A program made the translations under genes and the position numbers. The notes below the pieces were generated by a model. It ran no database searches, was not told where the DNA came from, and saw only the letters and a list, made by a program, of their open reading frames with translations. Of a DNA stretch of 64,000 nucleotides, positions 41,105-44,401 are shown piece after piece. The stretch comes from a virus (taxonomy: Duplodnaviria; Caudoviricetes): the IMG/VR virus record IMGVR_UViG_3300022848_000005; one strand, 5' to 3'. The first letter of the stretch is position 1. Each line of letters starts with the position of its first letter.

Positions 41105-41371
41105 ATGTTCAAGATTACTGATATTAGTGTGAAAAATTTTATGAGCGTTGGAAACAGCACTCAGGGTATTCGGTTTGACAGAAATGACCTAACACTTGTA
41201 CTGGGGCAGAATTTAGACCTAGGTGGTGATGACACAGGCGCACGTAATGGTACAGGCAAGTGTCTTTGTATAAATACATTAGTAAAAGTTCGAAATACAG
41301 AAACCGGCGAAGTAACAGAACTTACTATGGGAGAATTGTATAATGCCGCGGTGGGACAACAGCCTAAATGA
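41105..41371 (+). CDS. gp46: gp46 (Rad50/SbcC) N-extein (52 aa) fused to split-intein N-fragment (36 aa)
   Basis: KNFMSVGN..GARNGTGK (half Walker A), then CLCINTLVKVR (intein block A). Confidence 0.92.
   Translation: MFKITDISVKNFMSVGNSTQGIRFDRNDLTLVLGQNLDLGGDDTGARNGTGKCLCINTLVKVRNTETGEVTELTMGELYNAAVGQQPK
41261..41368 (+). mobile_element. Split intein N-fragment (IntN, 36 aa)
   Basis: CLCINTLVKVRNTETGEVTELTMGELYNAAVGQQPK; Cys1 directly follows the Walker A Lys. Confidence 0.88.
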
Positions 41372-42443
41372 TAACTGCACACAAGTAATGGAAACTGTTA
41401 TCAAAAATATAGAACCCAATACATACCAAACTTTACTTGCCTGCATAATACAGGCTAATGTCAAGAACTCTAAAAAAGAAATAGAAAAATATGTACGAAC
41501 CAGATTAGGACTCGTTACTTCTGACTCTAGACATACTAGAAATTATTGGTTACTAAGAGGATGGAGTACAAACGAAGCTTATGTAAAAGCTAAAGAAAAT
41601 AAACAGAAAAACTGCAAAAGCGTATACAGCCGGGAATTCTGGCTAGAAAAAATTAATCCTGCAACAAACAAGCACTATTCGGTAGACGAAGCAGACTTCG
41701 AACGGAACTCTCGTAGACCCATTAAAAAAGAATACTGGATCAAAAAAGGATACAGTAACAGCGATGCACGAGATTTTGCCGCTGGCGCCAAAGAAAGCAA
41801 CAACAAGAAAGGTGCCAGTGCGTCGGCAACAAGTGAGGTTCGCAGGGTTACCTCTAAGCGATGTATTGAGTATTATACCAGCAGAGGTGCTACGTTAGAA
41901 GAAGCGGCGGCTATGTTATCTAATTCTCAAAAATACTTTTCAAAAGATATATGTATTAAAAAATATGGTGAAGAGTCTGGTCTTGAAATATGGCAAGACA
42001 GGCAAGATAGGTGGCAGGCAACGCTAAATGCAAAGACAGACAAGGAAAAAGCAAGAATAAATCGATCTAAAATGTCAAAAGGAATATCAGTCTCAAATGC
42101 TGAAAAAATAATTGTCGAACATCTATCATTATTAGGAATAACAGTAGACACGCAATTTACATTATTTCAAAAAAATAAAAAACAATTTGTGTATGATATA
42201 ATGTATAATAATAAAATTGTTGAGTATAATGGCGATTTTTGGCACTCCAATCCTTTGTACTACCATGATAATTTTTTAAACCCAAGAACTAAAATAATAG
42301 CCAAAGAGAAATGGAAATTGGACAAGGCAAAAATTCAATTTGCTAAAGCCCAAGGGTATGAAGTATTAGTAGTATGGGAAAGCGATTTTAAGCAAAATAA
42401 AGAGGAAGTAATTAAACAGTGCATACAATTTCTAAAAACGTAA
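41343..42443 (+). mobile_element. Free-standing Vsr-like/DUF559-type homing endonuclease between the intein halves
   Basis: C-terminal YDIMY..IVEYNGDFWH..DKAK..AKAQGYEVLVVWESDF; overlaps both gp46 fragments in another frame. Confidence 0.82.
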
Positions 42444-42790
42444 ACAGAAAATTTATCAATAGTATTGATCTAACTAATCTCGAGATCGAAACCGATTCGG
42501 GATGGCAACCATTATCGACTATACACAAAACAATCCCGTATACTACCTGGCACATCGAGACAGTTAGCGGACTTACACTTGACTGTGCAGATACCCATAT
42601 TGTGTTCGATCATAACTATAACGAAATATTTGTTAAAGATATCGTGCCATGGGAATCTAAAATAATAACCAAGAACGGTGTTGACGTTGTTTGTAAAGTA
42701 GACGAAAAATCTTGCCAAGAGAACATGTTTGATGTTACAGTTAATCATCCCGCACATAGATTCTACTCTAACGGTATACTGTCACATAAC
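42419..42790 (+). mobile_element. Split intein C-fragment (IntC, 124 aa)
   Basis: Block B CADTHIVF, block F MFDVTV, block G HRFYSNGILSHN followed by Thr+1. Confidence 0.9.
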
Positions 42791-44401
42791 ACCACCATTA
42801 TTAACGCACTAAGTTATGCGTTATATGGTGAAGCACTGACAAAGATTAGAAAAGAAAATCTAATCAATAAAACAAACGGTAAGGATATGGTGGTTACCAT
42901 CGACTTTGAAAAAGATGGTAGCGCATATCGTATAGAGCGTGGTCGCAAACCTAACGTGTTAAGGTTCTACGTCAATAACACAGAACAAGATGACAACACT
43001 GCACAGGGCGACAGTCGTGAGACACAAAAGGAAATAGAGATCCTGCTGGGCATGAGTCATGATATGTTTAAGCACGTTGTTGCCTTAAACACTTACACTG
43101 AGCCTTTCCTAAGCATGCGAGCCAATGACCAGCGTCAGATGATTGAGCAGTTGCTGGGCATAACAATGCTTAGTGAAAAAGCAGACGCTCTCAAGGAACA
43201 AATTAAAGAAGTCAAAGACTCTGTTAAACTAGAGGACTTTAGAATTAAAGCAGTTAAAGAAGCAAACGAGCATGTTGGCACACAGGTGTCTAAATTAGAA
43301 CGTCGCTCAGTAATGTGGGAAACTAAAAAGCAGGAGGATAGTGTTAACCTCCAAACTGCCATAACTGCGCTTGAGAGTGTGAACATTGAAGCAGAGTTAG
43401 AAGCACATAGGTGTCTAGTAACTTACAAAGAGCATGCCCGTAATATTCGAGACTTAGACACTGCTATTACTGCCAATCAGAAAACTGTTGTTGCTGGTAA
43501 CAGCAAAGTAGAAAAGTACACAAAAGAGCTAGAGCAACTTCAAGATCACAAGTGTTTTACCTGTGGTCAAGAGTTTCACGACAGTAAACAAGAGCAGTTA
43601 ATTGTTAGTAAACAGGAAGACATAGCAGAGTTACAGGACGATATTGCAACTGCCGCACAGGGCTTGCAATCGCTAGAGCAAGCTCTATTAGATGTAGGCA
43701 AACTGGAGGACTGTCCTCCAACGTTTTACGACAGCATAGACGATGCGTACAATCACAAACAACAAGTCGACACGCTACAAACACAACTTAAGCAAAAGCA
43801 ACAGGAGTCTAATCTTTATACAGGGCAAATTCAGGAGATGAAGACTACTGCTGTACGAGAGATTAACTATAACATAATTAATGAATTCAATAGAAGACTG
43901 GAACACCAGGACTTCTTGTTAAAACTGTTAACCAACAAAGACAGTTTTATTAGAAAAACAATTATTGATCAGAACTTGGCATACTTAAATGCTAGACTAA
44001 GTTATTACTTAGATAAGATTGGACTACCGCACCAGGTAACCTTCTTAAGCGACTTAACCGTGGACATACAGGAACTGGGCAGAGACTTAGACTTTGATAA
44101 CCTATCACGTGGAGAACGCAATAGACTTATATTAAGTTTAAGTTGGGCTTTCCGAGACGTATGGGAAAGTTTATATCAGCCTATTAACGTATTGTTTATT
44201 GACGAGGTTATTGACCACGGCATGGACGGTATGGGTGTTGAGAGTAGTCTAGCAATACTTAAAAAGATGGCTAGAGAAGGCAACAAAGCAGTGTGGTTAA
44301 TATCACACAAAGACGAACTAGCTGGTCGAGTTAATAATGTATTGAACGTTGTTAAGGAAAATGGATTTACCAGTTACAATAATGACGTTGACACCGTATA
44401 A
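42419..44401 (+). CDS. gp46: Split-intein C-fragment (124 aa) fused to gp46 C-extein (536 aa)
   Basis: GTG start after AGAGGA; ...GILSHN/TTIINALSYALYG; zinc hook CFTC, LSRGE signature, VLFIDE Walker B, ISH. Confidence 0.92.
   Translation: MHTISKNVNRKFINSIDLTNLEIETDSGWQPLSTIHKTIPYTTWHIETVSGLTLDCADTHIVFDHNYNEIFVKDIVPWESKIITKNGVDVVCKVDEKSCQENMFDVTVNHPAHRFYSNGILSHNTTIINALSYALYGEALTKIRKENLINKTNGKDMVVTIDFEKDGSAYRIERGRKPNVLRFYVNNTEQDDNTAQGDSRETQKEIEILLGMSHDMFKHVVALNTYTEPFLSMRANDQRQMIEQLLGITMLSEKADALKEQIKEVKDSVKLEDFRIKAVKEANEHVGTQVSKLERRSVMWETKKQEDSVNLQTAITALESVNIEAELEAHRCLVTYKEHARNIRDLDTAITANQKTVVAGNSKVEKYTKELEQLQDHKCFTCGQEFHDSKQEQLIVSKQEDIAELQDDIATAAQGLQSLEQALLDVGKLEDCPPTFYDSIDDAYNHKQQVDTLQTQLKQKQQESNLYTGQIQEMKTTAVREINYNIINEFNRRLEHQDFLLKLLTNKDSFIRKTIIDQNLAYLNARLSYYLDKIGLPHQVTFLSDLTVDIQELGRDLDFDNLSRGERNRLILSLSWAFRDVWESLYQPINVLFIDEVIDHGMDGMGVESSLAILKKMAREGNKAVWLISHKDELAGRVNNVLNVVKENGFTSYNNDVDTV

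Follow-up and report, generated by a model that had tools for sequence, protein, structure and literature searches.

Here, we describe a gp46 gene that is carried in two pieces by an uncultured phage of the Caudoviricetes and whose break appears to be bridged by a split intein. The source is a 289,070-bp IMG/VR record (IMGVR_UViG_3300022848_000005; CheckV completeness, ~80%), and the part of it that was analyzed is a stretch of 64,000 nucleotides (nt), hereafter called the window. The N-fragment open reading frame (ORF), at positions 41105-41371, encodes 88 amino acids (aa), namely 52 aa of gp46 followed by 36 aa with the features of an N-terminal intein fragment (IntN), and its stop codon lies at 41369-41371. 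The C-fragment ORF, at 42419-44401, encodes 660 aa from a GTG codon, beginning with 124 aa that resemble a C-terminal intein fragment (IntC) and continuing with TTIINALSY and the remaining gp46. A third ORF, encoding a putative homing endonuclease, lies between them and overlaps the N-fragment ORF by 29 nt and the C-fragment ORF by 25 nt (Table 1).

Table 1. Features of the fractured gp46 locus and of the genes preceding it (positions in the window; assignments are predictions from the basis given)
Feature	Position	Strand	Content	Basis
gp46 N-extein	41105-41260	+	52 aa; ends GARNGTGK (first part of Walker A)	phrog_77 (SbcC) positions 295-333; translation
IntN	41261-41371	+	36 aa (CLCINT...QQPK) and stop; block A and first helix	Cys1 invariant in 99 relatives; mean column identity 81%
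TATAAATA, candidate T4-type late-promoter motif	41269-41276	+	in block A codons C-I-N-T	66 nt upstream of endonuclease ATG
GGGAG Shine-Dalgarno sequence and endonuclease ATG	41329-41345	+	inside IntN codons M-G-E-L-Y-N-A	same context in relatives
Putative free-standing homing endonuclease	41343-42443	+	366 aa	AlphaFold model; Foldseek; Pfam and PHROG matches
IntC	42419-42790	+	124 aa from GTG; blocks B (CADTH), F, and G (ILSHN)	invariant catalytic residues; TIGR01443; PDB profile matches; dN/dS (ratio of nonsynonymous to synonymous divergence)
gp46 C-extein	42791-44401	+	536 aa and stop; starts TTIINAL (end of Walker A)	phrog_77 positions 334-954, E = 1.3e-83
gp47, Mre11/SbcD-like nuclease subunit	40077-41090	+		phrog_100 (SbcD-like), E = 1.2e-65; Pfam Metallophos, E = 1.6e-7
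gp55-like late sigma factor	39138-40046	+	302 aa	phrog_12791, E = 1.9e-80

When the two exteins are joined, a protein of 588 aa with an intact GARNGTGKTT is obtained. The SbcC family phrog_77 matched residues 1-52 of the N-fragment at its positions 295-333 and residues 125-655 of the C-fragment at its positions 334-954, without any gap at 333/334; because this match is contiguous across the exteins, the host protein is broken at one point, between the Lys and the Thr of Walker A. The C-extein carries the zinc-hook CxxC, the signature motif, Walker B, and the H-loop, as read from the translation, and it also matched Rad50_zn_hook (E = 0.0011, under the family cut-off). Judging from these profile matches and motifs, the host gene is a predicted gp46/Rad50/SbcC-type ATPase with an adjacent Mre11/SbcD partner. 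An earlier reading of this DNA, made from its letters without database searches (hereafter the sequence-only reading), had claimed the same fragment ends, a 36-aa IntN, a 124-aa IntC, and a spliced length of 588 aa, and all of these were reproduced from the translation.

The junction that the sequence-only reading had predicted is matched exactly by natural alleles of gp46, both without the intein and with it in one piece. One allele without the intein (P0257; 589 aa) has the sequence GARNGTGKTTIINAL, and another protein (P0260; 750 aa), which shares a 90%-identity cluster with it, carries a contiguous intein of 161 aa at the same gp46 site. Such presence and absence of the intein within one 90%-identity cluster is an indirect sign of homing. 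A further allele (P0120; 749 aa) has a contiguous intein of 155 aa, in which the helix G-E-L-Y-N-N runs directly into the sequence with which the IntC of the window starts. This continuity indicates that the tail of IntN and the head of IntC in the window form opposite sides of a single loop, which holds the inserted endonuclease gene. The IntN of the window ends shortly past the conserved stretch G-E-L-Y-N-A-A, which is compatible with a helix as far as the sequence can tell.

The residues expected of a splicing intein are conserved among the relatives. Cys1 follows GTGK immediately and does not vary among 99 aligned N-fragments, and H60, D105, S122, H123, and N124 are invariant in 100 C-fragments; the +1 residue is Thr in the window and Thr or, in a minority, Ser among the relatives. 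The IntC of the window scored 16.0 bits against the intein C-terminal region model TIGR01443 (cut-off, 15.6 bits), and a profile of the IntC alignment matched the PDB inteins VidaL (E = 6e-9), gp41-1 (3e-6), CatC (8e-5), and NrdJ-1 (4e-4). The top match (0.90) of a language-model Atlas search with the contiguous intein was an Intein_splicing cluster. Matches of IntC to 'Pizza' propeller proteins in a phmmer search of the PDB sequences were spurious and repeat-inflated, and were set aside. By residue and motif criteria, the assignment of the element as a class-1 intein (Cys1, Thr+1), for which a HINT domain is expected, is supported. The atypical split proposed by the sequence-only reading, with a short IntN, a long IntC holding blocks B, F, and G, and an endonuclease gene in between, at the GK/T point of the gp46 Walker A, is also borne out.

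The endonuclease gene starts at ATG 41343, giving 366 aa, and not at the start of the 351-aa gene call, as homologues extend ~15 aa upstream of that call. An AlphaFold model built with an alignment of 62 relatives reached a pLDDT (predicted local distance difference test score) of 92.5. In Foldseek searches, its C-terminal domain matched the catalytic domain of I-Bth0305I (3R3P; probability 1.00, template modeling score 0.72 by target), Vsr (1CW0; probability 1.00), and a DUF559 protein (3HRL; probability 1.00). The E-values of the whole model were weak (0.04-0.5) because approximately one third of it aligns. Sequence profiles gave weak matches to 3R3P, 3HRL, and Vsr, and the protein matched phrog_22677 (E = 5e-15); among the 62 relatives, PF18741 was matched by 33 and DUF559 by 16, D270, E279, G282, and H286 are invariant, and D312 is nearly so. 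The middle ORF is accordingly annotated here as a free-standing putative homing endonuclease with a predicted Vsr-like C-terminal nuclease fold of the I-Bth0305I type. The modeled C-terminal fold is the same as that of the I-Bth0305I/Vsr-like endonucleases, which were also predicted by Dassa et al. (2009), and its free-standing position between split-intein halves is that of half of the loci in the same study (PMC2677866). The protein of the window differs from I-Bth0305I in having a helical N-terminal region of ~230 aa, which recombines independently of the nuclease domain.

Two further observations concern the make-up of this endonuclease family. It is modular, the similarity of many representatives to the protein of the window being confined to residues 1-230 or to residues ~150-350; and the ROS/MucR DNA-binding family was matched by 11 of the 62 aligned relatives.

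We assign a probability of roughly 85% to the reading that gp46 is fractured at Walker A by a class-1 intein, that this intein is itself cut by the Vsr-like endonuclease gene, and that the two halves splice in trans. In this scheme, the intein would be seated between the Lys and the Thr of the Walker A loop, and the endonuclease gene would have cut it after its first helix. Two polypeptides would be made, one consisting of the N-extein and the 36-aa IntN and the other of the 124-aa IntC and the C-extein. IntN and IntC would associate into a HINT domain, splice in trans, and release the intein, and the spliced 588-aa gp46, with its GARNGTGKTT P-loop restored, would work with the adjacent gp47 nuclease. 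The endonuclease would serve as the mobility engine of the cassette and would not be needed for splicing.

Several observations weigh against trans-splicing by this element. The match of the IntC of the window to Pfam Intein_splicing (PF14890), though significant (E = 0.0088), is under the gathering score. The residue three before the His in block B is Ala (C-A-D-T-H) and not Thr, and VidaL likewise reads C-A-x-x-H. Of 27 distinct gp46 loci, the window alone starts IntC with GTG, all the others having ATG, and the spacing of this GTG from the GAGG, 13 nt, is rather long. Finally, a search of the whole record found one copy each of gp46, of the endonuclease, and of IntC-like sequence; the single gp46 copy speaks for trans-splicing, but the record is only ~80% complete, so that a second copy may be missing from it.

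The change of the canonical block B Thr to Ala would also favor another explanation, in which the intein halves only hold the gp46 fragments together in a non-covalent complex and no splicing takes place, as with the fragmented NrdA of Aeromonas phage Aeh1; there is a precedent, in that phage genes split by endonucleases can have products that assemble unligated (PMC3045599). However, C1, H60, D105, H123, N124, and T/S+1, the residues on which splicing depends, are all invariant across ~100 diverged clusters. In addition, the break lies inside the GK/T P-loop, where a retained domain of 160 aa would disrupt nucleotide binding, and the contiguous alleles of the same intein must cis-splice to give functional gp46. 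We therefore regard assembly without ligation as very unlikely, compared with trans-splicing.

The fractured gene is not confined to this record. A search of metagenome proteins with the C-fragment found >100 clusters of ~660 aa that have the same M-H-T-I-S start and an IntC of 123 or 124 aa, and a search with the N-fragment found 305 protein clusters, with an IntN of mostly 37 or 39 aa. The sequence-only reading had described short-IntN splits of this kind as atypical and rare; the IntN of 36 aa does fall within the range of atypical splits, but with hundreds of clusters and the copies in TerL described below the arrangement is not rare in nature. The usual order in 80 IMG/VR loci is the N-fragment, a homologue of the endonuclease (33-74% identity), and IntC with the C-extein, all on the same strand.

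An assembly or frameshift artefact, with a true gene that carries a contiguous intein, had been named by the sequence-only reading as something that could undo its claim, and the source is indeed a metagenome-assembled virus record. Nevertheless, different assemblies contain identical copies of both fragments, the C-fragment in 12 contigs and the N-fragment in 22. The 1.1-kb insert codes for a member of a conserved protein family with 6632 representatives (E ≤ 0.001), the overlaps recur in dozens of diverged loci, and the layout is shared by hundreds of diverged relatives. We give practically no credence to an artefact.

The alternative that an invading endonuclease has left gp46 to decay as a pseudogene, in a phage that needs no gp46 or uses the SbcCD of its host, is scarcely more credible. 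It would account for the interruption of the gene and for the weak GTG start of IntC. On the other hand, all three ORFs are intact, the C-extein retains its motifs, and the split layout persists across lineages whose exteins are merely 23-59% identical. The dN/dS of IntC is 0.11-0.17 for the pairs with unsaturated synonymous divergence (dS), and that of the extein is similarly low. The mean identity of IntC is 56% where the exteins average 32%; this higher conservation fits either mobility or strong constraint.

Trans-splicing also accounts for a group of alleles that have lost the endonuclease. Five gp46 alleles (L017, L041, L059, L060, and L073) are endonuclease-less yet split, with spacers of 27-140 nt and their own stop and start codons, and three TerL loci are likewise endonuclease-less but split. 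These alleles are scattered over the IntC tree. One of them, L041 (3170-3500), corresponds to an L042-like arrangement (2251-3500) from which ~913 nt were deleted inside the endonuclease gene, the first ~50 and the last ~95 nt being left. Loss of the endonuclease with retention of both intein halves is as expected if trans-splicing works and is needed.

These alleles also bear on the possibility that rejoining of the two fragments takes place during RNA processing or translation, by a self-splicing intron with an endonuclease ORF or by bypass, to give a contiguous precursor that splices in cis. In favor of such rejoining, group I introns that contain endonuclease ORFs are known from T4-like phages, and this intein also exists in contiguous alleles. 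No Rfam family, introns included, matched positions 41000-43000 at E ≤ 1, however, and the endonuclease-less alleles have a stop codon, a spacer too short for an intron, and a separate start. The conserved start of IntC (ATG or, here, GTG), the GAGG upstream of it, and the conserved 25-nt overlap argue in the same direction. We consider rejoining before or during translation to be a poor explanation, with a very small chance of being correct, and retain trans-splicing of two separately made polypeptides as the preferred reading.

Two side observations were made on these alleles. Between L041 and L042, the dS of IntC is 0.13 and that of the adjacent extein is 1.85, a contrast that hints at a recent exchange of the intein region. 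In L063 and L065, two IMG/VR loci from two samples, the ORF of the gp46 N-fragment runs into that of IntC in another reading frame, leaving no spacer between them, so that what they carry is either a split allele of very compact form that lacks the endonuclease or a contiguous intein with a frameshift.

The codons of the intein seem to hold signals for the genes that follow. The endonuclease ATG falls within the IntN codons G-E/D-L-Y and has AGGAG or GGGAG 8-9 nt upstream in no fewer than 24 of the 27 distinct gp46 loci; the overlap between the endonuclease and IntC ORFs is exactly 25 nt in 26 of them. The octamer TATAAATA, which resembles a T4-type late promoter, occurs within block A, and it is found in full in 24 of 42 distinct loci, among both gp46 and TerL. 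Of 34 distinct loci, 33 use ATA for intein Ile4, compared with 19% ATA among the Ile codons of the exteins. Throughout the record, 14 of 19 TATAAATA motifs lie ≤90 nt upstream of an ORF on the same strand, and eight are in the non-coding 5.8%. This genome-wide placement suggests that the motifs act as T4-type late promoters in this phage, and given the gp55-like sigma factor encoded nearby, it is a reasonable inference that the copy in block A is a candidate late promoter.

We tentatively raise the possibility, though we doubt it more than we believe it, that the cassette is a self-contained expression unit written in intein codons. A gp55-dependent late promoter (TATAAATA), together with a ribosome-binding site and start codon in the IntN helix, would then give a late-phase boost of the endonuclease and the C-fragment, and the unit as a whole would have passed between the TerL P-loop and that of gp46. 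If this were true, trans-splicing could also gate the timing of active gp46. As a separate candidate, a 7-bp inverted repeat at 41369-41403, around an internal ATG at 41388, was considered as a regulatory hairpin and rejected; it is no stabler than shuffled sequence (z = 0.89) and is kept in the nearest relatives L018 and L007 only.

The same IntC is also found in TerL genes, which make up 16 of the 80 loci. Identity to the IntC of the window is 53-60%, the start point is the same, a related endonuclease is often present, and the intein sits at the GK/T or GK/S site of the TerL Walker A. The IntC tree groups the inteins by host; the maximum-likelihood tree needs six changes between TerL and gp46, and the well-supported branches force just one, so that one or several host switches both fit the tree. 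The nucleophile pair is Cys1/Thr+1 in the gp46 intein, Ser1/Cys+1 in GOS-TerL, and Cys1/Cys+1 in AceL-TerL.

Among the fractured genes of Dassa et al. (2009), one exception was noted, a 'Terminase' intein with a 122-residue C-part that holds all motifs but N1 (PMC2677866). Natural atypically split inteins have an IntN of 15-37 aa, and AceL-TerL and GOS-TerL are broken after the first helix, at the S2 site (PMC13014065). The 'Terminase' split intein (later GOS-TerL) shows the same early break of a P-loop ATPase by a free-standing endonuclease; its IntC has 122 aa (PMC2677866) compared with 124 aa in gp46, the IntN of the AceL-TerL/GOS-TerL type has 25-37 aa (PMC13014065), and the host is TerL instead of gp46/Rad50. 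Judging from the shared break point, the copies in TerL, and the endonuclease family, the gp46 intein is a sibling of the 'Terminase' (GOS-TerL/AceL-TerL) class.

Other known inteins are more distant in layout or sequence. The contiguous TerL mini-inteins of Ackermannviridae (e.g., 159 aa in Klebsiella phage Magnus) occupy the same Walker A point (QSGK/C...SHN/TT), belong to the same size class, and are 35-42% identical to IntC, but they lack any interruption or endonuclease gene, splice in cis, and reside in another host protein. VidaL, the best PDB match, and PolB16 OarG (PDB 6VGV and 8CPN) are also naturally split with a short IntN, but they are split after strand beta2 (IntN, 15-16 aa), whereas the gp46 intein is predicted to be split after the first helix (PMC13014065), and the hosts differ. 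The consensus 'Cat' intein (PDB 6DSL) is only a distant relative of the gp46 intein, as seen from the CatC match given above. The literature searched, which excluded the primary GOS-TerL and VidaL papers, contained no split intein in gp46, Rad50, or SbcC. The kind of element is therefore known, while its gp46 host protein and the ribosome-binding site, start codon, and late-promoter motif embedded in its codons appear to be new.

The gp47 gene lies directly upstream of the N-fragment ORF, and the gp55-like late sigma factor gene lies ahead of gp47. The gp55 of T4 has ~185 aa, and the 302-aa protein of the window is much longer; its match to a shorter family, phrog_234, is confined to residues 172-282 in the C-terminal part. 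Another gene for a free-standing homing endonuclease, SegE-like and of the GIY-YIG type (44479-44934, + strand; PF19835, E = 2.3e-39), is situated 77 nt 3' of gp46, so that with the inserted endonuclease two different putative selfish nucleases flank and interrupt the gp46 locus. The nearest gp46 proteins of cultured phages are those of the jumbo phages Phosso, PA5oct, and Atu_ph07 (~48% identity), and megablast found no cultured-phage DNA similar to the locus. Some related gp46 C-fragments (P0072, P0074, and P0117) are 718-781 aa long, a coiled-coil stretch of ~60 aa being tandemly duplicated, which indicates that the length of the Rad50-like arm differs between related phages.

Few genes are known that atypically split inteins have fractured, and this locus adds to them a new host protein, the Rad50-type ATPase that serves recombination in large T4-like phages. 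The hundreds of natural alleles, together with the matched contiguous, endonuclease-less, and intein-free forms, provide a series in which the splitting of inteins and the gain and loss of endonucleases can be followed. Protein engineering could also draw on them as a source of short-IntN inteins with the Cys1/Thr+1 pair. The sequence-only reading had suggested that the intein may be a tool of this kind; its value in that respect is modest, since an IntN of 36 aa is at the long end of the 15-37 aa range and, compared with VidaL (16 aa) and PolB16 (15 aa), offers limited advantage for peptide synthesis. The promoter-like motif and the ribosome-binding site inside intein codons illustrate how tightly a selfish cassette can be packed. 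The sequence-only reading had further proposed that recombination-dependent replication depends on trans-splicing, which may be the case as far as the single gp46 copy in the ~80% complete record indicates. If the two halves do splice in trans, the processing of DNA ends in these phages would depend on a protein ligation step.

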